64,000 bases of DNA, from assembly GCF_963921235.1 (NCBI RefSeq), contig NC_086097.1, positions 30,630,001-30,694,000 of the forward strand, read 5' to 3'. The stretch comes from Mobula hypostoma. Its lineage: Eukaryota. The notes below the pieces were generated by a model. The model was not told where the DNA came from, did not search any database, and saw only the letters and a list, made by a program, of their open reading frames with translations. Positions 3,611 through 51,089 of this stretch are shown here, piece after piece. Every line of letters begins with the position of its first letter. The first letter of the stretch is position 1. Both the position numbers and the translations under genes were made by a program.

Positions 3611-3864
3611 ACCCTCTGGTTATGGACATCTATCGAGTATGCCTATGTCCGAGATAAATTTGTCCACCATATTTGGCACCTCTCTCAGGCTTCTCTGACA
3701 AAGGCGTTCGATCTCAAGTAAGGTACTGCTGAATTCCCCTCTACCCTTTCCACTGTAAACAAATCTTCCTTACAGGAAGGACAGAGGAATCCTGGGGCTC
3801 ACATCCATAGATCAAAGTTCAGTTCTTGTCACCTCATTATATAAAGGATGTTGATTAGAGCATA

Positions 3865-14415: not shown

Positions 14416-14886
14416 TCAAAATCTCATGTTACGTGCATCAAACCCCATACATGCACTCTCTTCAACAGTACACCTTTCCATATCTGTACCACCTTTACCA
14501 GATCCACAAAACACTTTAATATCTTTTGCAGATTAATTAGTCTAAAATGCTCTTATGCTAATCTAGGCCAGGAGGGCCTCAGAATTCCTAGATATCCCTT
14601 TAGAACAGAGATGAAGAATTTCTTTAGCCAGTGAACCTGTGGAATTCATTGCCACATACAGCTGTGGCAGCCAAGTCATTGAGCATATTTAAAGTGGAAG
14701 TTGACAGGCTCCTGATAGGTAAGGGCTTCAATGGTTATGAGGAAAAGGCAGAAGAGTGGGGTTGAGAGGGATAATAAATCAGAAATAATAGAATGGTGGA
14801 CCAGGCTCAATGAGCTGAATGGCTTAATTCTGCTTCTGTCTCATGGTCTTATAGACTTGAAATGAAGTACAATTTACTCTTTCACT

Positions 14887-15632
14887 AAGATGGCAGCACA
14901 CTTGGATGCAACAGCCTCTCAGGGGCCAAAGATATTACCATCTTTTTAAAACTTTTTTTTACAATCACAACGCTGCTGGACATTAAGCACTTCAAGTACT
15001 GCAAGCCTATTCCATTAGCGAGTTGCTCATTGGCAGAGGAGCTGCATTTGGTGCAGACTGTGCTGCTGCCTGGTACAGAGGGGCATCGGAGTTGGTGCAT
15101 GAAAGCAGTGTGCAGACTAACAGCAAGTGATTGTCTTAGTTGTTTTTCTCATGATCAAAAGACCCCATTGGATGTTGGTAACCTGGATTACTACAAGTCC
15201 AGTTCACTGGTTTATTGGCAGGACCAACAGCAGGAGAGCTGCATGGTCGAGTCCATGTAGCTCAAACTAGGCCTCAAGCCATGGTGTCACCTGCTGCAGT
15301 CACCAGGAGAGGTGACACTGGAGGTGATGTAACGTGGCGTCCACGTTTGTGTTAGTGCTGCCCTCCAGTGTTGCTCAGTGAAAAACTAACTAGATTGCTT
15401 TTGTCTACAAACTACTATGGTCTTGTTCTTGCCAACAACATCCTTGAACTCAGGGATCTCAAGCTACATTATACATTTCTTGAGTGTTACAAGTTTACTG
15501 CTATCTTATAATGTATGTGCTATACGTGCCTTGGGCATGACTGTTAGTACTATGCTTTGCACCTCTACTCCGGAGGAATGTTACTTCATTTGACTGTATT
15601 CATGGTTAAGAGACAATTAAACAAACTTGAAC
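14887..15632 (+). mobile_element. Non-coding retro-element with AAGATGGC head and GACAATTAAA..CTTGAAC tail
   Basis: Head and tail architecture shared with 4051-4718, 20985-21642 and 55094-55943. Confidence 0.55.
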
Positions 15633-15849
15633 CCGATGAGCCCAAGGTGAGCAAGAACTCAAATGAGTTCACAGAAAACAATTTTGCTAAACTCTTCATA
15701 ACGTATTTAGTTTACAATTACTGTGTCTGCACTAATTCGGATTTTTAAGAACGTTAAAGGCACTATTTCAAAGTGATTTGTTGTTGTTTACTTGGGTGTA
15801 ATGGTTAAATTTCTAAATTAGTAACAGGAAAGATGGGACTAAACAGCCA

Positions 15850-17740: not shown

Positions 17741-17868
17741 AGTAACTGAGCAGTTACCATCACTCTCTTGGTTAGAGTAAAACAAACATCACAACTGCAG
17801 GAACATAGAGCTGTTGCGTTCCTCAGCAACTTGTGTATTGGATTTCCAGCACCTGCAGAATCACTTGC

Positions 17869-18140
17869 CAAGTCAAGTCACTTCTTATTGTCATTTCGAC
17901 CATAACTGCTGGTACAATACACAGTAAAAACGAGACGATGTTTTTCAGGACCATGGTGCTACATGAAACAATACAAAAACTACACTGAACTACGTAAAAC
18001 AACACAAAAACTACACTAGACTACAGACCTACCTAGGACTGCATAAAGTGCACAAAACAGTGCAGGCATTACAATAAATAATAAACAAGACAATAGACAC
18101 AGTAGGTTGGTGTCAGTCCAGGATCTGGGTATTGAAGAGT
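17869..18140 (-). mobile_element. LINE 3' end with (GACTT)n tail, probably Rex1-type
   Basis: Reverse strand ends AAATGACAATAAGAAGTGACTTGACTTG. It sits next to a Penelope 3' remnant. Confidence 0.55.
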
Positions 18141-20984
18141 TTTGCGTTTTTAACATCAGTAATGATAAATGCAAAACTGAGCTGCCATAAAACTTTGCCT
18201 TTCTTCTTTAACGATCTTCAGGGATAAAAATAATCAATATGATCTCTGTGACTCTGGGTCCACAGCAATATGGTTAACTTTTAACTCAATTTTGAAGTGG
18301 CCCAGCATTTACTCATTCTCTGCATGTGGATACTGTGGACACCCTCAACAGTGCTCCTGCAGAAAGTTGAGAGAGTGGAGGTGGGGAGCCTTGAACACCT
18401 ACAGTATGTGCCATGGTAGCACAGCACTTAACAGCACCAGAGATCAGTAATTAGGGCTCAGTTCCTGCCAGTGTCATTAAGAAATGTATGCATTCTCCCT
18501 GTAACCACAAGCTTCCCCTGGTGCTCCAGTTTCTTCCCACATTCCAAAGACATACAGTTAGGGTTATTAAAGTTGTGGGCATGCTATGTTGGTGCTGGAA
18601 GTGTGGCAACACTTGCAGGCTTCCCACTCAGCACATCCTCAGACTGTTTTGGTTGTTGACACAAATGATGCATTTGACTGTATATTTCAATGTACATGTG
18701 ACAAATAAAGCTAATCTTTATCTTTATTCCTAATTGCCCTTAAATGGATATATTCATAGAGAGTCAACCACACCATTAGGTCTGGGATCATGTCGAGTCA
18801 AACAGGATAAAGGTGATGGATTTCCTTTCTTGAAAGATATCTTTAAACTAACTGAACTTTTATGACAATCTGGTGGTTTTACAATTATGAGGAAGTTCAA
18901 GTTCACGCATTAGCTTCTTGTTCCTGATTTAATTTCCCAGTTGAGTGGTAGGTGTCAACTCCTGGATGAGGGGCCGTGGTCTCTGGATGCCAGTCCAGTA
19001 ACCTCACTGCTGTGCTACACCTTGAGTCAGATGCCAAGGCAGGCCATCACTATAAGAAATACTAAATGACTGGATTTATTGATCATAAATATGTACAATG
19101 GCATTTTTCAATGGATTTTTTAAAACCATGAAATACAATGCTTTACGTCCGAATAAAGCTTTGCTTTTTATTACTCAGGCACATTCCAAAAGTACAGGTG
19201 CAGGAAGATCCATTCACTCAAATGTAAAGCCTATAGCTGAAGGCTAACAAGTCCTTTGCACATAGTTAACCAAAGAATAGCATCTACTTTGAAGCAAATG
19301 AGATTAGTTCTATTGCAAACTGAACAACATATAAATGAAAATAATCAATTGTTAATACAGTTGTACAAGTTTTTCTTCATAGGAATTTTTCCTCAAATTC
19401 TTCAAAAACTTTTCCTTTTACAAGGCCAAAGTAACACACACAAATGCTAGAGGAACAGGCAGAACCTACGAAGGGGAGTAAATGGTTCAATGTCTCAGGC
19501 CAAAACCTTTCATGAAGACAATACAAGGTCAATAGTATTGGCTTTTTCAATGTTCATTCCCCAAGGATAACATCCAAAAAAAAACTCAGCTTCCTTTGTC
19601 ACATGTACATTGAAACATACAGTGAAATGCACTGTTGGAATATAGGAGGAAACCCAAACACAGGAAGCACGTGGTCACAGAGAGAACTTACAACTCCATA
19701 CAGACAGTAGCAGTAATTGAACCCCGATCACTGGCGCTGTAAACCATTACACTAACCACTATGCTACCATTCTGTTGCAGCACTGTTAGCAAAACTGGTG
19801 TCTACATCAGATACAGCTGATGCATGCAATCTATCAAGATAAGGAACACTAGTTAAAATATGAATCCTAAAGAAAAACAGTAACTTAATGCTACACAAAG
19901 CAGTAAGAGTGATAGTGCTATACTAAGCAGTTACACCTCAATGTTTTATACATTATATTGCACCACTCTTCAGCGATACCCGACTCCATGAAGTTATAAG
20001 AATTATGCACTAATCATCCGCAAAAAGCCACAGGGAAACATTAAGATAGCCCTGAGTAACTAACATTCTTCACCCAATCACGCTGAATCATTACAGAGAA
20101 CTGAGCCTGGGGGGGGGGGGAGAGACAGAGACAGAGACCTAATTGCACAATGTAGCTTTGATTGGAAGACAGATGGAGAGCAATGCCCACAACTACAAAA
20201 AATACTTCCTTCCAGTAACTAAAGCACACGCTCCTTGGTTATTTACGTTTCATTAGAAGATGGGGTTGTTGAGGGAGGATGAGGTTGGTGGTCGAGGATG
20301 AAAAGAGTTTTTAATTCAAATTTATAGCAGAAAATACTTGTTTCCTCGTCATTAAAACTTGCCAAAAACTGGGATCTGTTTAAAATTCAAGTAGACCCAC
20401 ATTCACATGAAACCAGTTGTTAGGAGGGGATTAGGAGCAAACAGCACATGTATTTCATGGCCCATTTACATTATCAAACAGTCCCCTCACTCAGTGTTCA
20501 GTCCTGCTGGACAGAGGCCAGATTGGCTGAAGACATACAGGAGCAATTACTGTATTGAGAAATCTGGGAGTGTTTTTAAGTGATATTTATTTTAGAGTTT
20601 CAGAATGGCAACAACCAGCTCATGCCACCCAATTACACCCACGGGCCCAATTAACCTACTAATCCGTACATCTTTGGAACAATTAGGAAACCGGAGCACT
20701 TAGAAGTAACCCCATGGTCACAGGGAGGACATACAAACACCTTACAGACCTTGGCAGGAAATGTACCCAGGTCACTGGTGCTGTAACAGCATTACACTAA
20801 ATGCTGTGTGTGCACATGCGTGTACCCAAATCTCAGGTACAATACTAAGAATACTCAGCAGTCAGGTACAGTATTGAACACAAATTATGCATTTCACTGC
20901 ATGTTTCAACGTACATGTGATAAATAAATCTGAATCTCATCAAGATTAAAGATTACCTTTATTTATTACATGTATAACTTTTGG

Positions 20985-21642
20985 CAAGACGACGTCAGTG
21001 GCCAACGATGACATCTTGCAATCAGCTATTGGATACTTTTCTAAACATTCTACAACTACTTTCGAATTGTGATCAACTGCAGCCTGTAAATTCCCTTTTT
21101 TGAGAATACATTTTTGGGCACACCTAATGATCTTGCACTTTTGCATTCTCCTGGGGTACTCAACTTGGAGAGAAGCTATGGCCATCACTGGGGGTGTACA
21201 TTATGTCAATTCCTAATGGCGGAATATGAATCTGTGTTCAGCTCCATTATTCTACACCGAGCGATGAGCAAGATTAAAATCAATGAGAACGAGAGAGGAA
21301 AACAAACAGGTGTTCAGTGCCATCCTCCTGCTTTTGACCAGCGTCCATCTCACTGCTGCCAGTAGGTGTAGCAGTCTTAGGGCCTACACTATTAAGATTC
21401 AATCGCCTCAACGATTTGTGGCTATGGACTCTCTTTAGGGATCTATGTGGTTGATGTTTAACATTCTGTGGTATTTGTATTTTGTTGTTTGATTTTTTTT
21501 TGCACGTATGATAGTCTTGTGTGGGGTTTTTCATTAGAATGGTTCTACGATGCTTCTTTGTTTTGTGGTAGCCTGCAAGAAGACAAATCTCAAGGTTGTA
21601 CACTGTACATATACTTTGATAATAAATATACTCTGAACTTTG
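20985..21642 (+). mobile_element. Non-coding retro-element (decayed CAAGATGGCG-like head) inserted in a V-SINE
   Basis: Splits a minus-strand SINE (tail 20942-20975, body 21643-21850). Ends GATAATAAA..TGAACTTTG. Confidence 0.6.
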
Positions 21643-22543
21643 TATCAACAACCAATACAGTCTGATATGTGTGAGGCCTGCTTGCAAGTGTCACCATGCT
21701 TCTGGTACCAATTTAGCATGCACACAACTTACTAACCCAGACCATACAGTAAGTCTTTGGAATACGGGAGGAAACCAGAACATCCACAGGAAACTCACGC
21801 AGATGTGAGGAGTACACACCAACTCCTTACAGGCATTGGCAGAAACAGAATACAGATAATATGCTGCCAACCAACACATGCCATCCTTGGACGCCCAATG
21901 CTCTAGAATGGATTTAAAATACACACATACTTCAGAGATGCACCTTAAAGCTTCTTTTGGCTCTAAACTAAAATTCATGCAAGGTATGCAAAGTTACCAC
22001 TCCGACACACTTGGCAATTTCTCTCACCAACTTCACCAATCCACATAGATGCCACAGCCAAGAAAGCTCACCAAATAACGTCTATTTCCTCAGAAAGCTT
22101 AAGAAATTTGGCATGTCCCCCTTAACCTTTACCGATTTCTACTGAAAGCATTCTGACTAGATGCATAATGGCTTGGGTTGCCAAATGCTCTGCACTGGAC
22201 CACAGGAAACTGCAGAGAATTAATGGACACAACCCAGCACATTATGCAAACCAGCTTCTCCTCCACAAACTCTGTACACTTCTCACTGCCTCAGTAAAGG
22301 AGCCAGCATAAATCAAAGACCCCATTCACTTCAGCCATTCTCTCTTCTCCCCTCTCCCATCAAGCAGAAGATACAACAGCTCAAAAGCACATACAGACAG
22401 TGTCAAGAACAGCTTCTATTCTGCTGTTTTAAGACTACGGAATGGTTGCTAGTACAACAAAATGAAATCTTGATGTCACAATCTACCTCGTTATGATCTT
22501 GCACCTTATCGTCTACCTGCACTACACTATTTTGTAACTGAAT

Positions 22544-24720
22544 TGTTCTGACCGCTAGAGGAACCGTTCATTTTGTATGCAGTTCGTTTTGTATGAACAT
22601 CACTTCCTGCCCAGGATAATTCGCATTTTGACTTAGAAGCACACACAGTAGAAAGACATCCATCGCCATCCACTCTATTTGCCCTTGAAACAGCAATATC
22701 TGTGAGTCTTAAGCTTTCTTAATATTGGTAAATATTTAGATGTACCTTGAAGGAAGTATTACGCTCATTTGTTTATTACTACTAAGTTATCATTGTGCCT
22801 TGAGTTCACTCTGGTCAACAGGGCATAGTTATGGAATGTTGCACGTGTGTATTACCTTGGTTAACACTGAGAAAAATTGGTAGTATATTCAGGCATGCGA
22901 TGATACTGTATTGAATTTAATATGTACTTCACTTAACTTACTGCAGTTTCACAAGGTTTTCCTCATTTAAAAACCCTGAAGAAAGTTTCCGGCTCAGGTG
23001 ATTTTTAAGAAGGTGTTTAACTCCCTATCTAGCCTTGTACATATGCACTGCAAGAGCAGTAGAGAGAAAAGATAACTTGTCTTCAAAGGCATTGCCCACG
23101 GACTGGAGACATCTAAATGTCGTATGGCACAAAGTCAGCTTCTGACCCAAGCAACATTGATCGCCAAGCCCAGGAAATCAGGTCAGAATATGGTGCAATT
23201 ACACCTTCGCGATGCTCAAGCAAAATCCCATTTAGCAATGCTGCAGCAGGGACCTGTGCCAAAACTGAAACGGCAAGCATGAGAGCAGCATATGTTAAGC
23301 GCAAAGTTGAAATGCTAATGGAGAAAGCTCATGTAGACATTGAGATAGCACGTACAGACGTGGAGAAAGCTCGTGTACAGGCTACAATGAATGCGCTGGA
23401 AGAGGAGCGTGAAGCTGAGGCTGCCTCAACAAAGGCAAAGGTGTATGACACAGCAGCTGACAGACAGTAGTTGTTGCCTCTCTGGGAAAGTGAATGAAGA
23501 GCCAACCACTGGTGCAAGTCCTCTAACATAACATGGCTGCTGGGGATCAATTCAAAGCAGTAAAGATAGGAACCAACTTCTTGCCATGCTTCACAAAGTT
23601 TTCACCCAGTCCCCCTCCTGAACTTTCATCGTCTGTTTCAGATTCAAACCCAAAGAAAGATGAACCCTCTTCGGGAGAAAATGAGAGGTGCCCAAGGTCA
23701 TCCAACTTGGGTATTCATCACTTAACAGCACACAAGGGCTGAACAGGACACCGAGTGCATCAGCTACTCACCTTTCAACAGAAGCTACCGCAGAACCAAC
23801 TGCTCACACTGCACCAGGCTGTAGTGACAAATAACCTCTAGTCAATAATTTGAGTAAGATGCTGAGACTATTCAGAAAAGCCCTGAAGCAGAGTCAGTCC
23901 AAATGTGGACAAGACAGTCATCTGGAGAATGGTGGACAATCTGAGGAGGGCAGCAAGGAGAACTGGAGAAACAGTAACAATATAATCACAGAACATAGAT
24001 GGGAACTCTGTGCAGTAAGCGCCAGTGATCACCAGGAAACGGAACAACCTACTGACACTTCAGAAGAATTAAACCCAGATGCAGCCGTAAATTCAAGGCA
24101 AGCAGCTTAGGCTACTACCAGTTCCAGCACATCCGCAGCAGAGCATCGCGGGGAGTCAGCTGAGTATCCATCAGATGTAGCTACTTCCCTGTACACTCTA
24201 AAGATATGTTCTGGAACATCAGAAGTTGTCGGAAACAGAGCCAGTGGATTTGTCGCGGAGTCAATGGGAAAGGTCTGCTTACCTCTGCCAACTCTCATTG
24301 TTTGTGACCATATTCCCAACACCAGGCATAAAATCCCAACTCATGAAGCTGAACATGGTCATTCACCTTTTAAGGACATAGCTAGCAAGAACCACTCTCT
24401 TCCTCCCCCAACCTGACTTCTTCTATTGCTTGGCAGAGGTACCATCTGTGCACACAAGATATATGAACAGCGCAATGGTCGGTATGATGCACATAAGCTG
24501 AGTGAATGGACCTTGGTTGGGTCATAGTGAGTGAAGTCTGCCTCAATGGTGCTCATCAGCTCACTGTCAGCACAGTTAACACTAATGTCCTGGAGGATGG
24601 GCATCCGAATCATTTCAGACCCTGTGAGAGGACCATCTATATGAAAAAGAATGCAGGAGTAGCCAAAGACAGCCTTTGCAGTGATTTGCACATTTGTAAG
24701 CAACCTCTCAGCGCAGAGCA
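22544..24720 (+). mobile_element. BEL/Pao LTR retrotransposon relic (putative 5' LTR 22544-23058, gag N-terminus, protease region)
   Basis: ORF 23117-23470 is Ala/Glu/Lys-rich coiled coil like the gag start of fish BEL/Pao elements. 24190-24630 reads YTLKICSG..RASGFVAES..LPLPTLIVCDHIPNTRHKIPT..LLLGR..DLGWVIVSEVCL..TNVLEDG, the BEL/Pao protease region. Putative LTR runs TG...CA. No RT/integrase or second LTR seen. Confidence 0.78.
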
Positions 24721-28747: not shown

Positions 28748-29035
28748 ATACTTACACTCAACCCCACCATCACATCCAAACTCCTAACAACGAGGGGCTG
28801 GGTGGAGCCAAGCAGAGCTGGGAGCACTGAGACTCACTCCGAGTGAGTGAAGCAGCCGCTCTTCCCACACCTGTTCACGTTCCTGTCAACACTGTTTCTA
28901 GGATTCTCTCCCACAGATCATTCATTCATTTCTGACTTATGAGTAGCTTGGGTCACAGTTTACAGGAATGGAAACCTGTCATAATCTGCTTTCACACTGT
29001 AGTACTAAGTTAATCATAAACTGGCCAAAACACCA

Positions 29036-30885
29036 GCAACACTCACAACAAGCTGGAGGAACTCAGCAGGTCGGGCAGCATCCGTGGAAACGATCAGTCA
29101 ATGTTTCAGGCCCGAACCCTTCGTCAGGACTGTAGAGGGAAGGGGCAATAAAGAAGGTGGGGGGAGGGTGGGAAGGAGAAGGCTGGTAGGTGCCAGGCGA
29201 AAAACCAGTGAGGGGAAAGATCAAGGGGTGGGGGAGGGGATAGACAGGAAAGGTGAAGAAGGAATAGGGGAAAGCATAATGAGTAGTAGAAGGAGGCGGA
29301 ACCATGAGGGAGGTGATAGGCAGCTGGGGGAGGGCAGAGTGAAACTGGGATGGGGAAGAGAGGGGGAGTGGATTACCAGAAGTTGGAGAATTCGATGTTC
29401 ATACCAAGGGACTGGAGACATCCCAGACGGTATATGAGGTGTTGCTCCTCCAACTTGAGTTTAGCCTCATCATGGCAGTAGAGGAGGCCATATACGGACA
29501 TATCCAAATGGGAATGTGAAGCAGAGTTGAAGTGGGTGACAACCAGGAGATCCTGTCTGTTGCAGCAGACGAAGCAGAGGTGCTCGACGAAGCAGTCCCC
29601 CAATCTGCGTCGGTTTTCACCGATGTACAGGAGGCTGCACCGGGAGAACCAGATACAATAGAAGACCCCCAACAGACTCACAAGTGAAGTGTTGCCTCAC
29701 CCGGAAGGACTGTTTGGGGCCCTGAATGGTGGCAAGAGAGGAGGTGTAGGGACAGGTGTAGCACTTACGCTTACAGGGATAAGTGTCGGGTGGGAGATCC
29801 GTGAGGAGGGATGTGTGGACCAGAGAGTCACGAAGGGAACGATCCCTGCTGAAAGCGGAGAGGGGTGGAGAGGGAAAGATGTGCTTAGTGGCGGGGTCCT
29901 GTTGAAGGTGGCAGAAGTTGTGGAGGATAATGTGCTGGATCTGGAGGCTGGTGGGGTGGTAGGTGAGGACAAGGGGAACTCTGTTCCTGTTGTGGTGACG
30001 GGAGGATGGGGTGAGGGCCGAAGTGTAGGAAATGAAGGAGATGCAGGTGAGGGCATCATTGACGATAGCAGAAGGGAAACCACGATCCTTAAAGAAAGAG
30101 GACATTTGATATGTCCTGAAACGGAAAGCCTCATCCTCGGAGCAGATGCAACAAAGACAGAGGAACTGGGAGTAAGGAATGGCATTTTTGCATGTGGCGG
30201 GGTGGGAAGAGGTATAGTCGAGGTAGTTATGAGAGTCAGTGGGCTTATAGAAGATGTCAGTAGACAGTCTGTCTCCAGAGATGGAGACTGAGAGATCGAG
30301 AAAGGGGAGAGAAGTGTCTAAGATGGACCAAGTGAATTTGAGGGCTGAGTGGAAGTTTGAAGTAAAGTCGATGAAATTGACGAGCTCAGCATGGGTGCAG
30401 GAAGCAGCACCAATGTAGTCGTCAATGTAGCGAAGGAAAAGTTGGGGAGCAGTACCAGTATAGGTTTGGAGCACAGACTTCCACATAACTAACGAAGAGG
30501 CAGGCACAGCTGGGGCCCACGCGAGTGCCCATAGCTACACCCTTGGTCTGAAGAAAGTGGGAAGAACCAAAAGAGAAGTTGTTAAGTGTGAGTACCAGTT
30601 CCACCAACCAGAGGAGGGTAGTGGTGGTGAGGAACTGGTGAGGTCTATTGTCCAGAAAGTAGTGGAGGGCTTTGAGGACTTCTTGATGGGGAATGGAAGT
30701 GTACAAGGATTGGACATCCATAGTGAAAATGAAGCGGTTGGGACTGGGAAACCGGAAGTTATTGAAGAGGTGGAGGGCATGGGATGTATCCCAGATGCAG
30801 GTGGGGAGGGACTGAACTATGGGTGACAAAATGCAGTCCAAGTAGGCAGATACAAGTTTGATGGGGCAGGAGCAGGCAGAAACCA
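29036..30885 (-). mobile_element. Older 5'-truncated Penelope-like element (RT C-half, GIY-YIG, 3' UTR with hammerhead motif at 29095-29132)
   Basis: Frameshifted ORFs 30422-30919, 29617-30507 (FLRYIDD) and 29373-29681 (LLYIGE..RLGD.F.EH) are colinear with the 38-40 kb element. Confidence 0.9.
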
Positions 30886-30939
30886 GCAACTTGTGCAGGT
30901 AAAAGAGATCAAGTGTCAACAGCTTAATTACTTTGGTAC

Positions 30940-31400
30940 AACATGGTGTTCAGTTCTGGTCACCTTATTATAGGAAGGATGTGGAGGCTTTTGGGAGGGT
31001 ACAGAGGATGCTGCCTAGATTAGAGAGCACGCTTTATGAGGGCAAGTTGAGTGAGCTAGAGCTTTTCTTTGGAGTGAATGACACTAAGAGGTGACTTGAT
31101 ACAGGTACAAGATGTTAAGAGACTGGACAGCCAGAGACTTTTTCCCCAGGATGGAAATAGCTAAAGCAAAAGAGCATAATTTTAAGATGGTTGGAGCCAA
31201 GTATAAACACAATAACAGGTGCATGGAATATCCTACCAGGGGTGGTGGGAGAGGCAAATACATTAGGGACACATAAACTCTTAGATAGGCACATGGATAA
31301 CAGAAAAACGAAGGACAAGGTAGGAGGGAAGGGTTAGATTGATCTTAGATAGCTTTAAAAAGTCGGCACATCATGGTCTGAAGGGTCTGCATGCCCTATG
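30940..31400 (+). mobile_element. CR1 3' fragment
   Basis: GTGTTCAGTTCTGGTCACC..AGGAAGGATGTGGAGGC, as in the other CR1 copies. Confidence 0.75.
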
Positions 31401-34621: not shown

Positions 34622-34753
34622 AGCACAAGAGATTCCTCAGATGCTGGAAATCTCAAGTAGCACACAAAACGTTAATGGAACTCAGTGGGTCAGGCAGCAT
34701 CCATGGAAAGGAATAAACAGTTAGCGTTTCAAGCTGAGACCCTTCATCAGGAC
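34622..34753 (-). mobile_element. Short Penelope 3'-end fragment with decayed hammerhead (34718-34753)
   Basis: CAGATGCTGGAAATC...GGCAGCATCCATGG...GTTTCAAGCTGAGACCCTTCATCAGGAC. Confidence 0.75.
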
Positions 34754-35771
34754 ACCATCTTTCTTCTAAAGTACCTTTGGCAACCAATCAAGCAAGCTCA
34801 ATGTATGTTCAACTAATCATACAAGTCAAGTATTAACATGCACTGAATACATCAACCTCCAACTAATTTGATTTTTGTACTGTCAATGTTCTTGCAGAGA
34901 AGGATAGCCAGGGCTCCTTCACCAACACATCATGATCAATGAAGGCAGAAAATTCACAATTCAAACTAGCAGTGTAGAAGGCAGCCATTTGGGCACAGTA
35001 GCTGTGCTAGCTCTTTTGAAGAGTTATCTACTAGCCCCACTCTGCTACTCTCCTTCAAATAATTTACTTTCCAAAATTTGTACCCAAATCATTCTTTAAA
35101 GTTAGTTTTGAAATAGATTGCACTAACTTTTTGTGCAGTGCATTCCAAGTGATTACACGCAACAACAGGTCTTTGCTTTTCCTTTCTAGGTCCATGGCAG
35201 GGAATTTCCATGGCATTGTTTTCTGTTGGGACACAGATCTTCCTCATGCACCACATAACCATTACAGCACGGAAACAGGCCATCTCAGCCCTTCTAGTCC
35301 GTGCCGAACTCTTACTCTCACCTAGTTCCACCGACCTGCACTCAGCCCATAACCTTCCATTCCTTTCCTGTCCACATAGCTATCCAATTTTACTTTAAAT
35401 GACAACATCGAACCTGCCTCAACCACTTCTGCTGAAAGCTCGTTCCACACAGCCACCCCTCTGAGTAAAGAAGTTCCTCCTCATGTTACCCCTAAACTTT
35501 TGCCCTTTAACTCTCAACTCATGTCCTCTTGTTTGAATCTCCTCCACTCTCAATGGAAAAAGCCTATCCATGTCAACACTATCTATCCCTCACAATCTTA
35601 AATACCTCTATCAAGTCCCCCCTCAACCTTCTACACTCCAAAGAATAAAGACCCAACTTGTTCAACCTTTCTCTGTAACTTAGGTGATGAAACCTATGTA
35701 ACATTCTAGTAACACACATCAAAGTTGCTGGTGAACGCAGCAGGCCAGGCAGCATCTATAGGAAGAGGCGC

Positions 35772-35807
35772 AGTCGACGTTTCAGGCCGAGACCCTTCGT
35801 CAGGACT
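35772..35807 (-). ncRNA. Minimal hammerhead ribozyme motif, sense to the Jagged pre-mRNA
   Basis: Reverse complement is identical to the 36-nt motif at 40584-40619. Confidence 0.78.
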
Positions 35808-35853
35808 AACTGAAGGAAGAGTGAGTATGCCCTTACTCACTCTTCCTTCAGTT

Positions 35854-35889
35854 AGTCCTGACGAAGGGTCTCGGCCTGAAACGTCGACT
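35854..35889 (+). ncRNA. Minimal hammerhead ribozyme motif
   Basis: AGTCCTGACGAAGGGTCTCGGCCTGAAACGTCGACT, identical to 40584-40619. Confidence 0.78.
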
Positions 35890-37324
35890 GTGCCTCTTCC
35901 TATAGATGCTGCCTGGCCTGCTGCGTTCACCAGCAACTTTGATGTGTGTTGCTTGAATTTCCAGCATCTGCAGAATTCCTGTTGTTAACATTCTAGTAAA
36001 CCTTCTCTGTACTCTCTCTATTTTGTTGACATCTTTCCTATAATTTGGTGACCAAAACTGTACACAATACTCCAAATTTGGCCTTACCAATGCCTTGTAC
36101 AATTTCAACATTACATCCCGACTCCTATACTCAATGCTCTGATTTATGAAGGCCAGCATACCAAAAGCTTTCTTCACCACCCTATCCACATGAGATCCCA
36201 CCTTCAGGGAACTATGCATCATTATTCCTAGATCCCTCTGTTCTACTGCATTCTTCATTGCCCTACCATTTACCATGTATGTCCTATTTTGATCTACCCA
36301 CCACACCACCTACTGCATCTCCAAGAAGTGGGACTGAGAGCAGAAGTCTCCACTAGCGTGAGAGTCTAGGACCAGAGGACACCGCCTCAGAATAGAGGAA
36401 CTTTAGAACAGAGAAGAGGAAGAATTTCTTTAGCCAGAGGGTGGTGAATCTGCAGAATTCATTACCACAGATGTCTGTGGATGCCAAATCATTGGGTGTC
36501 AAAGATTACTGGGAGAAGGCAGGAGATGGGATTGAGAGATATAATAAAATCAGCTATGATGGAATGGTGGAGCAGACTCTGCTCCTTTGTCTTGCGGTCT
36601 TATCAGCCCAAAACAGACCATCTCAAGCTAACACAAAGTTTTACTGTCTTACTTTTGAAACTTTAGACCAAGGTTCTGAATCGCCTTTCAGGTATGTGGA
36701 AAACATGCCATGACAATATGAAAGAAAATAGATTTCTTCTTGGTAACCAGCCAATATGTAATCCTCAGCCAACATCACTCCAATAAATGATTAGATCATT
36801 GGTTTCTATAAATTACCTGTATCTTCTATTTTACCCTCCACAACACCTCAAAACACATCCACAATTGGTTGTAAACTATACTCAATATAGTGGCTGAAAT
36901 ATGGCCTATGTAAACATGTGAATGTGTTCCACACCTTTAAAAACAAGCTCACATCCCTGAAAACAAAATGACCCTGACCAGCAACAACCAAGGAAACGTT
37001 ACCAGCAAAACTAATTCAAAAATCACAATTTTAACATTGAGGCCATTTCAAAATGGACCAGAAAAAGTTAACAAAATAAATCGCTGGTTTGGTTACAGGA
37101 TTACACAGCACTAAGGTGAAAGAAACATTGGCAGAGATGCAGTCATAAATCAATGGATGATTCAGCATAAATTGGCATGTTGGCTCAGCCTCATTTTTGG
37201 GGGGCTAAGTAATTCAAACAAATATCACGTTAATGTAAAATAAAGACATGCATTTCTCGATGACTTCAGGATGCTCCATAGTTTACTACAGACAACGAAG
37301 TGCTTCAGAAAAGTAGCCACAATT

Positions 37325-38050: not shown

Positions 38051-40678
38051 CCCAGCCTCCCCCCTCCCCCCTCTGATCCCAGCTCTCATCCGTGCCGGGT
38101 CTTTACCATCCCTTCCGACCTTCAACTGTCGGAGGCAGAACGCTCTGTTCTCAGTAAGGGCCTCACGTTTGTCCCCCTTCGCCCACACCTCAGCGAGTTC
38201 CGTGTTCGCCATGATGCGGAACTTTTCTTCCGCCGTCTCCGTCTCCGAGCCTACTTCTTCGGCAAGGACTCTTCCACCCCCACCGATGACCCCTTCTCCC
38301 GTCTTCATCCCTCCTCTTCTTCATGGACACCCCGCTCTGGTCTTCTGCCTGCTCTGGATCTCTTTATTGCCAACTGCCGACGGGACATCAACCGTCTCGA
38401 CTTCACCGCACCTTGTCCCCATTCCAACCTCACTCCTTCGGAACGCTCTGCTCTCCACTCCCTCCGCACTAATCCTAACATTATTATTAAACCCGCTGAT
38501 AAGGGGGGTGCTGTTGTAGTCTGGCGTACTGACCTCTACCTTGCCGAGGCACAGCGACAACTCGCGGATACCTCCTCTTATTTACCCCTCGATCGTGACC
38601 CCACTAAGGAGCACCAGGCCATTGTCTCCCACACTATCAACGACTTTATCCGCTCAGGGGATCTCCCATCCACTGCTACCAACCTTATAGTTCCCACACC
38701 CCGCACTTCCCGTTTCTACCTCCTACCCAAGATCCACAAACCTGCCTGTCCTGGCCGACCTATTGTCTCAGCTTGCTCCTGCCCCACCGAACTCGTTTCT
38801 GCATACCTCGACACTGTTTTATCACCCCTTGTTCAATCCCTTCCGACCTATGTTCGTGACACTTCTCACGCTCTTAAACTTTTCGATGATTTTAAGTTCC
38901 CTGGCCCCCACCGCTTTATTTTCACCTTGGATGTCCAGTCCCTATATACTTCCATCCCCCATCAGGAAGGTCTCAAAGCTCTACGCTTCTTTTTGGATTC
39001 CAGACCTAATCAGTTCCCCTCTACCACCACTCTGCTCCGTCTAGCAGAATTAGTCCTTACTCTTAATAATTTCTCCTTTTGCTCCTCCCATTTCCTCCAA
39101 ACTAAAGGTGTAGCTATGGGCACCCGTATGGGTCCTAGCTATGCCTGCCTTTTTGTTGGGTTTGTGGAACAATCTATGTTCCGTGCCTATTCTGGTATCT
39201 GTCTCCCACTTTTCCTTCGCTACATCGACGACTGCATTGGCGCTGCTTCCTGCACGCATGCAGAACTCGTTGACTTTATTAACTTTGCCTCCAACTTTCA
39301 CCCTGCCCTCAAGTTTACCTGGTCCATTTCTGACACCTCCCTCCCCTTTCTAGATCTTTCTGTCTCTGTCTCTGGAGACAGCTTATCCACTGATGTCTAC
39401 TATAAGCCTACTGACTCTCACAATTATCTGGACTATTCCTCTTCTCACCCTGTCTCTTGCAAAAACGCCATCCCCTTCTCGCAATTCCTCCGTCTCCGCC
39501 GCATCTGCTCTCAGGATGAGGCTTTTCATTCTAGGACGAGGGAGATGTCTTCATTTTTTCAAAGAAAGGGGCTTCCCTTCCTCCACTATCAACTCTGCTC
39601 TTAAACGCATCTCCCCCATTTTACGTACATCTGCTCTCACTCCATCCTCCCACCACCCCACTAGGAATAGGGTTCCCCTGGTCCTCACCTACCACCCCAC
39701 CAGCCTCCGGGTCCAACATATTATTCTCCGTAACTTCCGCCACCTCCAACGGGATCCCACCACTAAGCATATCTTTCCCTCCCCCCCCTCTCTGCATTCC
39801 GCAGGGATCGCTCCCTACACAACTCCCTTGTCCATTCGTCCCCCCCATCCCTCCCCACTGATCTCCCTCCTGGCACTTATCCGTGTAAGCGGAACAAGGT
39901 GCTACACATGCCCTTACACTTCCTCCCTTACCACCATTCAGGGCCCCAAACAGTCCTTCCAGGTGAGGCATCACTTCACCTGTGAGTCGACTGGGGTGAT
40001 ATACTGCGTCCGGTGCTCCCGATGTGGCCTTTTATATATTGGTGAGACCCGACGCAGACTGGGAGACCGCTTTGCTGAACATCTACGCTCTGTCCGCCAG
40101 AGAAAGCAGGATCTCCCAGTGGCCACACATTTTAATTCCACATCCCATTCCCATTCTGACATGTCTATCCACGGCCTCCTCTACTGTAAAGATGAAGCCA
40201 CACTCAGGTTGGAGGAACAACACCTTATATTCCGTATGGGTAGCCTCCAACCTGATGGCATGAACATTGACTTCTCTAACTTCCGCTAGGCCCCACCTCC
40301 CCCTCGTACCCCATCTGTTACTCTTTTTAATGCACACATTCTTTCTCTCACTCTCCTTTTTCTCCCTCTGTCCCTCTGAATATACCTCTTGCCCATCCTC
40401 TGGGTCACCCCCCCCCCCGTCTTTCTTCCCGGACCTCCTGTCCCATGATCCTCTCGTATCCCCTTCTGCCTATCACCTGTCCAGCTCTCGGCTCCATCCC
40501 TCCCCCTCCTGTCTTCTCCTATCATTTTGCATCTCCCCCTCCCCCTCCAGCTTTCAAATCCCTTACTCACTCTTCCTTCAGTTAGTCCTGACGAAGGGTC
40601 TCGGCCTGAAACGTCGACTGCGCTTCTTCCTATAGATGCTGCCTGGCCTGCTGCGTTCACCAGCAACTTTGATGTATG
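38051..40678 (+). mobile_element. Young 5'-truncated Penelope-like retroelement (Neptune-like): RT + GIY-YIG endonuclease + 3' UTR with hammerhead motif
   Basis: ORF 37988-39604 has PLE RT motifs (IIKPADKGGAVVV, FYLLPKIHK, GVAMGT, FLRYIDD). ORF 39393-40289 has a Cys linker (CYTC) and VIYC..C..C..LYIGET..RLGDRFAEH. 9-bp direct repeat TTACTGTTT at 38042-38050 and 40679-40687. Three frameshifts. Confidence 0.93.
40584..40619 (+). ncRNA. Minimal type I hammerhead ribozyme motif (PLE type)
   Basis: AGTC-CTGACGA-AGG(GTCTCGG)CCT-GAA-ACGT-C-GACT: stem I AGTC/GACT, core CUGANGA and GAAA, loopless palindromic stem III ACGU, GUC cleavage triplet. Confidence 0.8.
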
Positions 40679-40799
40679 TTACTGTTTTGCTTTCAATGTA
40701 TGCGCTTCCCCTCCCTCCCTTTTCCACAGCAGAAGCACAGATGTTCAAGGAGCATTTCACATCCCATTAACTGGCAGATTTCAAGCTACCAATATGTAA

Positions 40800-41276: not shown

Positions 41277-42841
41277 CAGTACAGGTTTTCCTCGCCATCC
41301 GAAGGTAGAGCATTCCTATGAAATGGTTCGTAAGCCGAAATGTCGTAAAGCGAAGAAGCAATTACCATTTACTTATATGGGAAAATTTTGTGAGCGTTCG
41401 CAGACCCAAAAATAACCTACCAAATCATGCCAAATAACACATAAAACCTAAAATAACAGTAACATATAGTAAAAGCCGGAATAATATGATAAATACACAG
41501 CCTATATAAAGTAGAAATACTTTTCCACAATCATTGCCGGCACTGTTCGCCAAAGCGAAAATCTCACGCAAGCGCTGTTGGCAAAAACACTCTCCAGTAA
41601 CCTTAAGTTATGAAGCTGCCAAATCATACCAAATAACACGTAAAAATACACAGCCTATATAAAGTAGAAATAATGTATGCACAGTGTAGTATCACTTACC
41701 GGAATCAGGAAGACAGCGCAGAGCACACTGATGATGGTGTGTTAGACTGAGTCGTTGCAAGTTGGGTTGGTGCAGTGGCCCCCACCCTCCAGGCTGCCGA
41801 CCGATACATTGCTGTGAAGCACGCAGGGGTCCAGCAGTAGCCAGAAGGCACACAGCATATCTTTAAGAAAAAAGCTGAAATAAACATGCTAATTAATTAG
41901 GATTAATAAAAGCTGTTTATTTCGGCTTTTTTCTTAAAGATGTGCTGTGTGCCACCCGGCTACCGCTGCATGCTTCGCAGCAATGTATCGGTCGGCAGCC
42001 TGGGTGTTGGGGTGGTGGGACACTGGGGTGTCATCTCATCATCGTCTGTTTCCATCAGAGCAGGTGGCTCATCTTCTCCTATGACTGCCCACCTCGATAT
42101 CGAAGGGCGAGGTTCGTCATCTGCTGTGGCTGATGTGGAAGTCTTGCCTGACTGCTGAGCCTCGCGCATTTTTCTATCATACAGTTCTTTGTAAGCACTC
42201 AAACTATCGTGCAAATATCCCCTAAACCTACGTACCCTTTCAAAATTAAAGTCGTACTTTATCATTGCAGCGAAAATCTCATACAGTTGCTTCACGTTCA
42301 TTTCGCTACCGCATTCGGTTTCGATTGTTATCCTTTCCTCTTCCAATTGTATCAGCTCTTCATGTATCAGCTCTTCATCTATCAGTTCTTGGTCATGGGA
42401 TGCCAAAACCTCTTCAACATCATCTTCGTCAGCTTCCACAAGCCAAACTCACTTAGTCCTTACTTCGTTCACCACGATCAAAACGCTTAATTATGTCTAG
42501 TTTTACACTAAGTGTAACACCCTTATGAGCTCTTTCAGGCATTTCCAATACCTCAGAACTCATCTTGCAAACGGCTGCTCACAGGCACGTGTTTAAGCAA
42601 TGCTGGCGAGAATGCAGTTCCGAATCCGGGGGAGAGCCGCTGCTCGGGCTTTTTATCGCGCACTGATTTTTTTTCGTAACAGTGAAAACACCTTCTGAAA
42701 GCGAAAACAGGGTACTAATGTGGGTCTTTCATAACAGTGAGGTTTCGTAAAGCGAACGTTCAAAAACCGGGGGACACCTGTACTGTGTAAAAGTCTTAGG
42801 CACATATATAGAGTTAGGGTGCCTAATATTTTTGAATACTG
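41277..42841. mobile_element. Tc1/mariner-type MITE (~65 bp) split by the Tigger insertion
   Basis: TA-CAGTA|Tigger|CTGTGTAAAAGTCTTAGGCAC...GTGCCTAATATTTTTGAATACTG-TA reconstitutes the same MITE as 43203-43269. Confidence 0.75.
41282..42780 (-). mobile_element. Tigger/pogo-like DNA transposon, internally deleted
   Basis: TA on both sides (41280-41281, 42781-42782), imperfect TIRs CAGGTTTTCCTCG / CAGGTGTCCCCCG. ORF 41960-42439 (DDVEEVLASHDQELIDEEL..FER..YKELYDRK) resembles the Tigger1/TIGD transposase C-terminus. Confidence 0.82.
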
Positions 42842-43269: not shown

Positions 43270-43393
43270 TACGGTAATAAACCTGATTCTGAGTTTGAGT
43301 GCCTAAAATATTCCTTTCAAGATCAATATTAAATAATTTAATACACAGTAATAAAAGCTGAAAGATATATATTAAAAATATACACATTTTATT

Positions 43394-46300
43394 TATATAC
43401 ACACACACAATATATATATATATATATACACACACACTCTATATATACACACACTATATATACACACACACACACTCTATATATACACACACTATATATA
43501 CACACACACATTATATATATACACACACTATATATATACACACGCACACACACTATACACGCGCACACACTATACACGCGCACACACTATACACGCGCAC
43601 ACACACTATATATATACACACACTATATATATATACGCACACACACTATATATATACGCACACACACTATATATACGCACGCACACACAATATATATATA
43701 CACGCACGCACACACAATATATATATATACACGCACGCACACACAATATACACACACACAATATATACACACACACTATATACACACACACTATATACAC
43801 ACACACTATATACACACACACACTATATACACACACACACTATATATACACACACAATATACATATACACACAATATATATACACACACAATATATATAT
43901 ACACACACAATATATATATACACACACAATATATATATACACACACAATGTATATATATACACACACACAATGTATATATATACACACTATATATATACA
44001 CACACTATATATATACACACACTATATATACACACTATATATACACACTATATATACACACATACACACACTATATATACACACACACACAATATATACA
44101 TACACACACACACAATATATACATACACACACACACAATATATATATATATACACACACACTATATATATATATATACACACACACTATATATATATATA
44201 TACACACACACTATATATATACACACACAATATATACACACACACACAATATATACACACACACACAATATATACACACACACAATATATACACACACAC
44301 AATATATATATATACACACACTATATATATATACACACACAATATATATACACACACACACACAATATATACACACACACACACACAATATATACACACA
44401 CACACACACAATATATACACACACACACAATATATATATACACACACACATATATATACACACACACAATATATATATATATATACACACACACTATATA
44501 TATACACACACACACAATATATATATACACACACAATATATATATACACACACACACAATATATATACACACACTATATATACACACTATATATATACAC
44601 ACACTATATATATACACACACTATATATATACACACAATATATATACACACACAATATATATACACACACACTATATATATACACACACACTATATATAT
44701 ATACACACACTATATATATATATATACACACACACTATATATATATATACACACACAATATATATATATATACACACACACAATATATATATACACACAC
44801 ACAATATATATATACACACACACACACAATATATATACACACACACACAATATATATATATACACACACACACAATATATATATACACACACACACACAA
44901 TATATATATATACACACACAATATATATATATACACACACACACACAATATATATATACACACACAATATATATATACACACACACACACAATATATATA
45001 TATACACACACTATATATATATATACACACACACACAATATATATATATACACACAATATATATATATACACACACACATATATATATATACACACACAC
45101 AATATATATATATACACACACACACACAATATATATATATACACACACACACACAATATATATACACACACACACAAATATATATACACACACACACAAA
45201 TATATATATATACACACACACACACAATATATATATATATACACACACACACATATATATATATATACACACACACACAATATATATATACACACACACA
45301 CACAATATATATATATACACACTATATATATACACACACACACTATATATATACACACACACACAATATATATATACACACACACACAATATATATATAT
45401 ACACACACACAATATATATATATACACACACACAATATATATATATATACACACACACACAATATATATATATACACACACACACAATATATATATACAC
45501 ACACACACAATATATATACACACACACAATATATGTATATACACACACAATATATATATATATATATACACACACAATATATATATACACACACACAATA
45601 TATATATATACACACACACAATATATATATACACACACACACACAATATATATATACACACACACACACAATATATATATATACACACACACAATATATA
45701 TATATACACACACACACACTATATATATATATACACACACACACTATATATATATACACACACAATATATATATATACACACACACTATATATATATATA
45801 CACACACTATATATATACACACACAATATATATACACACACACACAATATATATACACACACACAATATATATATATACACACACACAATATATATATAT
45901 ACACACACAATATATATACACACACACACTATATATATACACACACTATATATACACACTATATATACACACTATATATATATACACACACACAATATAT
46001 ATACACACACACACACACAATATATATACACACACACACTATATATATATATACACACACAATATATATATACACACACAATATATATATATATACACAC
46101 ACACTATATATATACACACACACACTATATATATATACACACACACACTATATATATATACACACACACACAATATATATATATACACACACACAATATA
46201 TATATATATACACACACACAATATATATATACACACACAATATATATACACACACACACAATATATATATACACACACACACAATATATATATACACACA

Positions 46301-47729
46301 CACTATATATATACACACACACACACTATATATATACACACACAATATATATATATACACACACAATATATATATACACACACACAATATATATATACAC
46401 ACACACTATATATATACACACACACACAATATATATATATACACACACACTATATATATATACACACACACACACTATATATATATATACACACACACTA
46501 TATATATACACACACACAATATATATATATACACACACACACAATATATATATATACACACACACAATATATATATATATACACACACACAATATATATA
46601 TACACACACACACAATATATATATACACACACATATATATATATACACACACACAATATATATATATATACACACACACACAATATATATATACACACAC
46701 ACAATATATATATATACACACACACACAATATATATATATACACACACACACACAATATATATATACACACACAATATATATATACATACACACTATATA
46801 TATATACACACACACACAATATATATACACACACACACAATATATATATACACACACACAATATATATATATACACACACACAATATATATATATATACA
46901 CACACACACAATATATATATACACACACACAATATATATATATACACACACACACAATATATATATATACACACACACAATATATATATACACACACACA
47001 ATATATATACACACACACACAATATATATACACACACACACTATATATATATATACACACACAATATATATATATATATACACACAATATATATATACAC
47101 ACACACACAATATATATATATACACACACACACAATATATATATACACACACACAATATATATATACACACACTATATATATACACACACACACTATATA
47201 TATATACACACACACACTATATATATACACACACACACTATATATATATACACACACAATATATATATATACACACACACAATATATATATACACACACA
47301 CACAATATATATATATACACACACACACAATATATATATATACACACACACAATATATATATATACACACACACTATATATATATACACACACACTATAT
47401 ATATACACACACACACAATATATATATACACACACAATATATATATATACACACACACACAATATATATATATACACACACACACAATATATATATATAC
47501 ACACACACAATATATATATATACACACACACAATATATATATATACACACACACAATATATATATATACACACACACAATATATATATACACACACAATA
47601 TATATATATATACACACTATATATATATACACACACACAATATATATACACACACTATATATATACACACACACACAATATATATATATATACACACACA
47701 CAATATATATATATATACACACACACACA

Positions 47730-47760
<31 letters not shown>

Positions 47761-48235
47761 ATATATATACACACACACACACTATATATATACACACACA
47801 CTATATATATACACACACACACAATATATGTATATACACACACAATATATATATATATATACACACACACAATATATATATATATATACACAATATATAT
47901 ATATATACACACACAATATATATATACACACACACACACACAATATATATATATACACACACACACACAATATATATATATACACACACACACACTATAT
48001 ATATATACACACACACACTATATATATATACACACACACAATATATATATATACACACACACTATATATATACACACACTATATATATACACACACAATA
48101 TATACACACACACAATATATATACACACACACACAATATATATATATACACACACACAATATATATATATACACACACAACATATATATATATATATATA
48201 CACACACACTATATATATATATACACACACACACA

Positions 48236-48266
<31 letters not shown>

Positions 48267-48295
48267 ATATATATATATATACACACACACACACA

Positions 48296-48334
<39 letters not shown>

Positions 48335-48379
48335 ATATATATATATATATATATACATACACACACACACACACACACA
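43394..48379. repeat. ~5-kb compound (TA)n(CA)m micro/minisatellite
   Basis: Units of about 15-30 bp, (TA)n(CA)m, each joined by a single A or C. CGCA variants only at ~43540-43740. Confidence 0.98.
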
Positions 48380-51089
48380 GTTCCCATCAGCACACTTCCC
48401 ACAGAGTACAAATTCTACAAATTACAGCCTGGATCCATCACTGGACAGAGAAGTGAATCACTGCAACCATGAAAAATGAGCAGATGTCCCTGGGCAAGAA
48501 TTGCAGAACATTACGTGCTAAAGGTACAGAGATAGGGAGACAAAGAGACAATGGCAGATGCAAAGCAGGCCCTCCCTGAATTTCCCTTTTATGGTCTGGA
48601 TGTCACCTTTAAATGGGACTTGAGCATACAAAATTAATGATCGAGTTTTTCCCCCTGAACATAAACATTCCAGTCCTCTGCTGGTTTAGTTAAACATTTT
48701 GCTTCTGAGCGAGGAGATCTCCAACCACCTGTTGAGAATCGCTCATTGACGTTTGTGCTATTAAGTTGCAGGGTTTTGAATTATTTCCATCTCTCCATTG
48801 CTGCATACTGCAACACGCAACAGGTGACTCGGCATTGCTTTCATTGAACGCTAGCAATCCTGAACAGCTTTTTTCCTTTACAACTGTCATGTTTCCATTC
48901 ACAGGCAACTCACACTGGGATCATGGTCATGCCTGCAGCAGTCGGCCTCCAGGACCTCAAGCTCCAGAAGGGCACAAAGATTAAAGATTATTTTTATTTG
49001 TCACATGTACATTAAAACAGTGAACTGTGTCACTTGCATCAACGACCAACACAGTAAGAGAATGTACTGCAAGAAGCCCAGCAGTGTCACCATGCTTCCA
49101 ACACCAACGTAGCATGCCCACAACTACCAACCTGTACATCTTTGAAATGTGGGAGGAAAGCAGAGCACCCAGATGAAACCCACATGGTCACAAGGAGAAC
49201 GTACAAACTCCTTACAGACAACAGTGAAAATTGAAGCCCGATCCCTGGTGCTGAGAAGTGTTATGCTAACCACTACACTACTGTGCTGCCCAGAAAGCAA
49301 GCAACTTTTAGCCATTTAACCCAGTAAGAGCCTAATACTACTTGTACCTGATCTACAAGCACCTAAGCAGATTGTGAATAGGTGCAAGTCTCCCAAACAA
49401 CACTTCTCTTCCAACCTAAAGGTGAGGCCAATTATCAAAGTTTATTTAAAAATATTCATTTCGACAACACCTTCCTCAATCAAAGGACATCGAAAAGCAT
49501 TGACAGCCAATCACCTTTACATTCTCATTCATTTCAAGTTCCTCCTTGCCCTCCCTCTTATTTTCTCATAAGCATCCAACTTCCTCTAATTTTGTCCTTC
49601 AACATTCCCAAACTTAAACTGCACTAATGGCTGCACCTTCAGCTGCCAGAAACGTTAGCTCCAGAAATTCCTCAAAACACCTCCCACTCACCCTTTCCTT
49701 TAAAATCCTGCTTAAAGTGCAACTCTCAAAAGGAACATTGCAATCCTTTTACCCTAGTATATTCATAAGTAGATCCATTTTTTTTATTTATAACACTCTT
49801 GAACAGTTTTTGCCATGTTATTATTCATGATATACAACAGTGATAATAAACCAGATTCTGATATTTTATTTATTTTAGATATACAGCACAGTGCCAGGTC
49901 CAACAAGCCCATGCCACCCAATTACACCCATGTGACAAACTAACCTACTAGCACATACATTTTTGCAAGGTGGGAGAAAACCAGAAGACCCAGGGAAAAT
50001 CCACACAGTGATGATGAGAATGTACAAATTCCTACAGACAGCACAAGAATTGAACCCAGGTCGCTGGCCCTGTGGTAGCGTTACCTAACCACTATGCTAC
50101 CGTACCACTCCAAAGCATTATGATGCCTTCAAGCCAAGATCAACTTAGTCAGCTGAGTCGTGGAGTTAGACAACAGGAAACAGGCTCCTTGGTCCAACTA
50201 GGTCCATGCCAAACAAGACACCAGTCTAAACTTGTTCCATATGCCTGTATTTGACCCTTAAGCCAGCTTTGACCCATAACCCAACCTTCCTGTTTAAAAT
50301 GACTTATCATTAACCAAGGGGTCCATGAACCCCAGGTGGGAAATCCCTGCTCAAAACCTTTCCTATGTACCTGCCCAAGTGCCTTCTAAACATTGTTAAT
50401 ACACCTGTCTCAACCATTTCCACTGGCAGCTCACTCATACAAAAAGCTGCACCTCAGGTCACTATTAAATTTCTTCACTTTGACCTTAAACCTATGCCCT
50501 CTAGTTCTTTATTTCCCAGCCCAGGAAAAAAAAAGCCTCCGTGAATTCACCTTATTTATGGCCCTCAAGATTTTATACACCATAGAGATTGGTACCGTAA
50601 TTAAACCCAGAATTTCTTCTCTGTGCATTGACTTTATATGGATTAAAAGCCTTAAATGGCCCTGCTGCTCAATACCCAAATATTTCATTCGACCATTAAA
50701 CAACTGTTGGTTGCCCATCATACTGTCTGCTAAACTTGTCACATACCAAAGCTTCCACAGGGAATTAGCTCAATCCTTGCAGAAGCAGTTATCTGCCAAT
50801 ATCCATCGACTTATGCCACCTCCCTTCCTTACTCATTTGTTTTAGCAATTTTAAAAAATTCATACAAAAGATATATCACTCAAGCATTTTGTCTGTCAAG
50901 GTCAACACCAAAAGGTCCAAATCTCCAAATATATTAAGATTAGAGGGACACATGAACAATCCACTAAAGAAATTCTGCTCAGGCCCTTCAACCCAACCTG
51001 GCCATGTGTCTGATATCCCTGTATGCCCTGCTCCTAAATGTACAATTTACCAGAGCAATAAATTACTATTTAATAGAGAAACACTGAAG

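Follow-up and report, generated by a model that had tools for sequence, protein, structure and literature searches.

The window, which is the whole 64,000-nt stretch of Mobula hypostoma DNA that was analysed, contains at positions 35699-35999 a hairpin with a hammerhead motif on each strand. The question raised by this locus is whether such a fold-back moves through the genome as a unit or was formed only once, where it stands. The original prediction described a young insertion from the 3' end of a Penelope-like element (PLE), which our analysis confirmed, and suggested a non-autonomous, retrozyme-like unit moving as a whole, which it did not. The hairpin is a real and recent insertion of a very abundant PLE in head-to-head form, its junction is unique, and many sibling insertions have a like anatomy. 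As a single element it is an ordinary dead-end insertion, one of thousands. Very probably it arose in a one-off event: reverse transcription of one RNA was primed from either end of a staggered cut, and the two copies were joined head to head.

The two arms (35711-35827 and 35834-35950) form a 117-bp duplex with a single mismatch (35770 G / 35891 T) and are separated by a 6-nt spacer at 35828-35833, just as had been described. An exact 14-bp direct repeat flanks both arms (35699-35712 and 35986-35999). The same 14-mer is present once, with the same left flank attached, in 1,069 other copies of the host repeat, and therefore the flanking repeat, which had also been noticed before, is a true target-site duplication. 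This one duplication surrounds the whole two-armed unit. The host repeat that was split by the insertion lies on the minus strand at 36000-36309; it holds a LINE-like ORF fragment without a Pfam match, and we take it to be CR1-like. With the left-arm bases 35711-35712 counted as part of the duplication, the insert proper is 35713-35985 (273 bp). In it, an inverted and 5'-truncated copy of the PLE 3' end (pLTR; 35711-35827, minus strand) adjoins at the 5' end a sense copy of the same region, also 5'-truncated (35830-35950, plus strand). The hairpin loop at the turning point is made of 2 filler bases (35828-35829) and the first 4 bases of the sense arm. A 35-nt tail (35951-35985, plus strand) follows the sense arm only, and is absent from the other arm and from the longer Penelope copy at 38051-40678. 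Both copies are reduced to about 120 bp, and the insert has no ORF and no coding capacity.

The arms had been called almost identical to the 3' end of this longer copy. The plus arm is indeed 96.8% identical over 124 nt to positions 40560-40683, and what has to be corrected is the relationship. The copy at 38051-40678 (plus strand) is a long 5'-truncated element with a 9-bp duplication and no inversion, and as the template of the insertion it was rejected: the plus arm carries a tail that is missing from this neighbour, and the variants differ. It is therefore a sibling. Its reverse transcriptase (RT) and GIY-YIG regions lie in different frames with a CX4CxxC linker, and both matches (RVT_1, E = 1.2e-5; GIY-YIG, E = 2.2e-4) are weak, just below the curated cut-off. 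At another locus, L130, the RT and endonuclease (EN) regions are contained in one 559-aa frame, again with a CX4CxxC linker. The parent family is thus an EN+ PLE, with the RT followed by a C-terminal GIY-YIG endonuclease in one ORF. The accessible text of PMC8557442 gives a Zn-finger-like CX2-5CxxC linker upstream of GIY-YIG as a mark of Neptune, common to Nematis; placed by its CX4CxxC linker, the present family would be of the Neptune/Nematis type.

The origin of the tail was found at two other loci. At L111 and L177 the pLTR continues through the 35-nt extension into the same further element sequence, and therefore the extension is the PLE tail, which in tandem units comes after the pLTR. 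The abundance of the family can be seen from an exact 30-mer near the 3' end of the element, which has 64,181 matches in the genome.

Further repeats were observed in the window and near a family member elsewhere. Older relatives of the PLE 3' end, 75-79% identical, are located at 16052-16168, 16456-16583, 29035-29131, 34632-34753 and 58395-58475, and the first two of them face each other head to head across ~290 bp. The minus strand at 29035-30949 holds another Penelope-like copy, which is decayed and has kept fragments of RT and EN. Immediately at its 5' end, a long copy of the family at L130 has a two-armed insertion (L130:3445-4320, G000:C1:9788194-9789069; arms ~400 bp, duplication ~16 bp), which may be a case of self-targeting. 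Two other features of the window are a nested inverted repeat at 41780-42012 (arms of 55 nt and 51 nt, 88-89% complementary), which lies beside a minus-strand ORF fragment at 41960-42448 and looks like a DNA-transposon or MITE remnant, and an AT/AC-rich simple repeat of ~5 kb at 43342-48479 with spurious open frames of 1,700 codons.

The frequency of two-armed insertions was evaluated from the first 100 exact matches of the 30-mer on contig C1, which extend over 4.06 Mb and represent 90 insertions. Among these, 33 are two-armed, 54 are single-armed and 3 have an internal inversion. Short hairpins make up 28 of the 33 two-armed insertions, and 10 of the 33 carry the whole hammerhead motif on both strands. 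When scaled to the 64,181 matches, this corresponds to ~18,000 short hairpins genome-wide (12,500-24,300) and ~6,400 with the whole motif on both strands (3,100-11,300), which are rough values, as an exact 30-mer favours young copies and samples two-armed insertions twice, the sample comes from the start of C1 only, and very short partner arms may escape it. In a second sample with longer flanks the arm lengths ranged from ~90 bp to more than 2 kb, and the insertion at 35699-35999 is the short end of this continuum. A looser genome pattern, which sees only 0-13 nt between its two motifs, found 75 fold-backs with a similar turning point; the fold-back analysis below is based on the 50 listed of these 75, where the present site is L033.

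The distribution of the tail follows a strict rule in these data. Exactly one tail was found in all 33 two-armed insertions of the C1 sample and in all 50 listed fold-backs (the two sets overlap by at least one locus). Since 24 of the 54 single-armed copies have a tail, an independent choice for each arm would give 33 one-tailed pairs out of 33 with a probability of about 8e-11. The two arms of an insertion also resemble each other in their variants. Of 47 insertions, 40 have matching arms at the four diagnostic sites and 7 show a difference at such a site; between insertions the agreement is 15%. Rare variants common to both arms occur 12 times in the listed fold-backs when 0.3 are expected. 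The arm reaching further in the 5' direction is the tail arm in 24 of the 50 listed fold-backs and the tail-less arm in 18, and the two are equal in 8.

The 5' ends of the arms peak at element positions 2521-2545, where 32 of 100 arms end (1.28/nt compared with 0.04/nt upstream, about 30-fold). The hammerhead of the element is at 2534-2569, with its cut after 2565, and the peak is located at its front edge. Junctions at the cut site itself were considered and rejected, as only 5 of the 100 arms end at 2561-2566. The arms of the present insertion end at element positions 2510 and 2514, ~20 nt upstream of the peak, in a shoulder that contains 9 of the 100 arms. Judged from these end positions, run-off at a transcript start would be the simplest reading of the peak. 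Several motifs at window positions 40566-40590, at the peak, are putatively initiator-like, and in such a pyrimidine-rich sequence they may have arisen by chance.

We account for the insertion by the following steps. The endonuclease would nick the two target strands 14 nt apart. Priming by one DNA end would begin where the pLTR ends, and priming by the other ~35 nt downstream of this, where the tail ends. The two cDNAs would run through the hammerhead and terminate 20-25 nt upstream of it, presumably close to the 5' end of the RNA, and repair would then join them head to head with 2 filler bases. The one-tail rule and the matched arm variants fit a scheme in which both cut ends copy one RNA from two neighbouring start sites. 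For the anole PLE named PAc, the accessible text of PMC11167929 reports that both strands are cleaved and extended in vitro from two start sites bracketing the tail, and that the insertion is independent of its hammerhead. As to whether a Penelope-specific double priming operates, in which one RNA and two fixed sites 35 nt apart force one tail on every insertion and the short insertions run off at the transcript start before the hammerhead, we hold the case to be evenly balanced.

Another explanation keeps the one-off insertion but lets the second arm be self-primed, either by snap-back of the cDNA or on an antisense template, the latter being a published hypothesis for head-to-head PLE palindromes (PMC3846280, accessible text). 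Self-priming accounts for the matched arm variants, the near-equal arm lengths and the 1-2-nt microhomology loops, and still we consider it unlikely. After snap-back of a tail-primed cDNA, the tail-less arm can extend no further 5' than the tail arm; however, the tail-less arm is the longer one in 18 of the 50 listed fold-backs, as counted above, and in several kilobase-scale cases. With an antisense template, agreement with the arm-length counts is possible. Tail-less arms mostly terminate at the point where single-armed copies without a tail do, which marks this point as a priming site, and extension of two strands from two start sites is already known in vitro (PMC11167929, accessible text). 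Arm-to-arm conversion after the insertion is a possible source of the variants common to both arms. Our preferred reading is that of priming by both ends of the staggered cut.

The hammerhead motifs have to be considered before the fold-back can be judged as a mobile unit. There is one motif per strand, at 35854-35889 on the plus strand (predicted cut after 35885) and at 35807-35772 on the minus strand, which is the pre-mRNA strand (predicted cut after 35776). Rfam at its gathering threshold gave no match in the whole 64-kb window, a result that is uninformative for minimal hammerheads, and so the assignment rests on the sequence and on the description of minimal hammerheads (min-HHRs) in the accessible text of PMC4209133. 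Both motifs possess the core boxes, stem I, stem II and a palindromic 15.1-16.1 segment without loop III. The full motif that had been noted in each arm is therefore present on both strands, but the word "intact" needs a qualifier: the closing pair of stem II is G.U (or A-U in a shifted register) and not the conserved G10.1-C11.1. Both arms have U at 11.1, as do 226 of the 241 motif contexts in the fetched loci, a set partly selected for that variant. An exact 44-mer spanning the U-type hammerhead has 24,827 copies in the genome, and U at 11.1 is a trait of an abundant young subfamily, which is also represented at window positions 40584-40619. A C-type 34-mer has 6,478 exact genome copies, a count that is not directly comparable with the former as the lengths of the two probes differ.

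The folding of the hairpin RNA was evaluated as well. Its folding energy is -254.4 kcal/mol (z = -31.7), and 0 of 100 shuffles were equally good. Relative to the ensemble, the hammerhead fold costs 74-77 kcal/mol in the complete insert, as against 4.4 in a 52-nt monomer. On either strand the antisense arm is transcribed first, and the two motifs, ~50 nt apart, are each fully base-paired to the opposite arm. Each strand has one sense motif, and therefore no intramolecular dimer is possible. The earlier suggestion that the ribozyme is locked by its own antisense arm thus holds as a prediction, with the active fold some 75 kcal/mol uphill: the hammerheads are predicted to be passengers of the pLTR, unable to fold in the hairpin RNA and inactive here. 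Published min-HHRs show no cleavage as monomers and weak cleavage as dimers (PMC4209133, accessible text).

A retrozyme-like fold-back unit would be transcribed, self-cleaved and re-inserted whole. The absence of coding capacity, a hammerhead motif on both strands and a clean duplication agree with this picture, and so does the recurrence of some junction strings at other loci; yet we find it highly improbable. Had the unit moved, the original prediction expected its junction at several loci with different duplications. The junction occurs once in 3.48 Gb, and this indicates that the hairpin most likely folded once on landing and is not spreading as a unit. The junctions of its siblings are varied. 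Among the 50 listed of the 75 fold-backs there are 30 distinct junctions; 25 of the fold-backs have 1-2 nt of microhomology, 10 are blunt and 15 contain filler. An exact flanking repeat of 11-16 bp is present in 43 of the 50, and the duplications are distinct. Four recurring junction groups of 5-6 loci were observed in this set, and every one of them is a microhomology joint. Within these groups the subfamily haplotypes are mixed, and in one group of five all five loci differ in haplotype; three groups have a junction that lacks self-symmetry, and in these the tail occurs on either side. The recurring junctions are therefore explained by repeated independent formation, and clonal families were rejected on the same grounds. 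Two small junction groups in the listed fold-backs are not microhomology joints. The loci L034 and L035 (G000:C1:100181121 and 102738636), 2.6 Mb apart, have in common their junction, a 2-nt filler and their haplotype, and differ in their duplications and tail-less ends; from these sequences they are the only candidate for re-mobilisation among the 50 listed fold-backs. In view of this pair and of the two small groups, a fold-back might on rare occasions be mobilised again. For the present locus, the head-to-head arrangement in place of a tandem one, the single sense hammerhead per strand, the energy cost of the hammerhead fold and the continuum of arm lengths among two-armed insertions all stand against movement as a whole.

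A different derivative was observed at L177 (G000:C1:1876700-1877300, minus strand). It is a 341-bp head-to-tail repeat in which ~150 nt from downstream of the tail are fused to the 3' end of the pLTR, and the hammerhead is retained in the first unit and lost from the second. Its arrangement suggests that a small circular or internally deleted RNA was copied here, and it is nearer to a retrozyme than the insertion at 35699-35999. As a spreading head-to-tail derivative it was rejected, the fusion junction being present at that locus only (2 matches).

An origin of the palindrome by misassembly, or by later recombination between two neighbouring copies, is scarcely credible: perfect palindromes are a known hazard and inverted PLE structures cause assembly problems (PMC8557442, accessible text), but one exact 14-bp duplication surrounds both arms, one mismatch and the tail distinguish the arms from each other, and identical anatomy with distinct duplications is found in 43 of the 50 listed siblings. 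The contigs of four of the 24 listed public runs gave 16,000-60,000 paralogous records each and were swamped by paralogues, with no piece across 35699-35999.

The hairpin may also be considered in its gene context. An MNNL-domain exon of a Notch-ligand gene, found via its reading frames, is located at 62436-62738 on the minus strand (Pfam PF07657, E = 2.5e-37), and a DSL exon is located at C1:30537817-30537951, also on the minus strand, 92 kb before the window. Within the 64-kb window itself, scanning for the motifs of EGF and DSL exons gave no match. The order and strand of the two exons suggest that they belong to one gene. If so, the hairpin is intronic, downstream of the MNNL exon, and transcribed from the minus strand, where its mismatch becomes A.C (35891/35770). 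This supports the prediction of an extended dsRNA within an intron of the minus-strand Notch-ligand pre-mRNA; the name Jagged, rather than Delta, is our assumption from the exon sequence.

If double priming is true, ~18,000 products of the natural reaction would be available in one genome for tests of PLE integration, together with an equal number of near-perfect dsRNA hairpins, a part of which lie in introns. Two-armed insertions as a class are a large source of near-perfect dsRNA in the introns of the mobula. The one-tail rule, the matched arm variants and the 5'-end peak at the front of the hammerhead constrain PLE integration, whose mode is called unresolved in the accessible text of PMC8557442 and PMC11167929. 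A literature search over titles and abstract openings, with partial coverage of subscription journals and without supplements, returned nothing on twin priming in PLEs or on a model of double priming from one RNA, and within the same scope nothing on such PLE hairpins in cartilaginous fish.

When compared with known systems, the proposed reaction resembles L1 twin-priming, where the second target strand primes a second cDNA and an inverted 5' piece with a microhomology joint results. Priming by the second strand, and an inverted piece joined by microhomology, are the points of likeness. In L1, however, the template of the inverted piece is another region of the RNA, further upstream, whereas here both arms copy the same 3' region, as it seems from two fixed neighbouring starts.

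Retrozymes are defined as head-to-tail tandem repeats in the accessible text of PMC7229834 and bioRxiv 10.64898/2026.07.22.740005. The non-LTR retrozymes are similar to the present insertion in being short, non-coding and related to PLE pLTRs, with a type I hammerhead. They have at least two same-strand hammerheads in head-to-tail units and release circular RNA, and the same unit is present at many loci; in contrast, at 35699-35999 there is just one insertion, head to head, in which each strand has a single sense motif and whose junction is found nowhere else in 3.48 Gb. With the min-HHRs of PLE pLTRs in the accessible text of PMC4209133, its motifs have in common the core boxes, the extra base before stem II, the short stem I, the lack of loop III and the palindromic ACGU, and they differ in that stem II of the mobula subfamily closes with G.U or A-U instead of G10.1-C11.1. 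The same source reported in 2014 dual min-HHRs on opposite strands in Schistosoma, 100-700 bp apart, whereas the motifs here are ~50 nt apart and fully paired to each other's arm.

The Poseidon element PAc of Anolis carolinensis (PMC11167929, accessible text) resembles the mobula family in its two RT start sites separated by the tail, in the cleavage and extension of both target strands, in a tail that is the sequence just downstream of the pLTR, and in a hammerhead that is not required for insertion. It belongs to a different clade from the mobula family with its Neptune/Nematis-type linker, and the accessible text of that paper contains no model of inverted insertions. Inverted 5'-truncated copies with a one-sided tail of 30-40 bp are typical of PLEs according to the accessible text of PMC8557442 and PMC3846280. 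The insertion at 35699-35999 is an inverted-pLTR PLE insertion of this kind, having the 5' truncation, the adjacent inverted 5'-truncated copy, the tail at one end, one duplication round the whole unit and a hammerhead in the pLTR. It differs from those examples in that its copies are cut to about 120 bp with no ORF left; the duplications in the mobula are mostly 13-16 bp compared with 8-10 bp in the Adineta examples, and the one-tail rule is strict in the two mobula samples counted.
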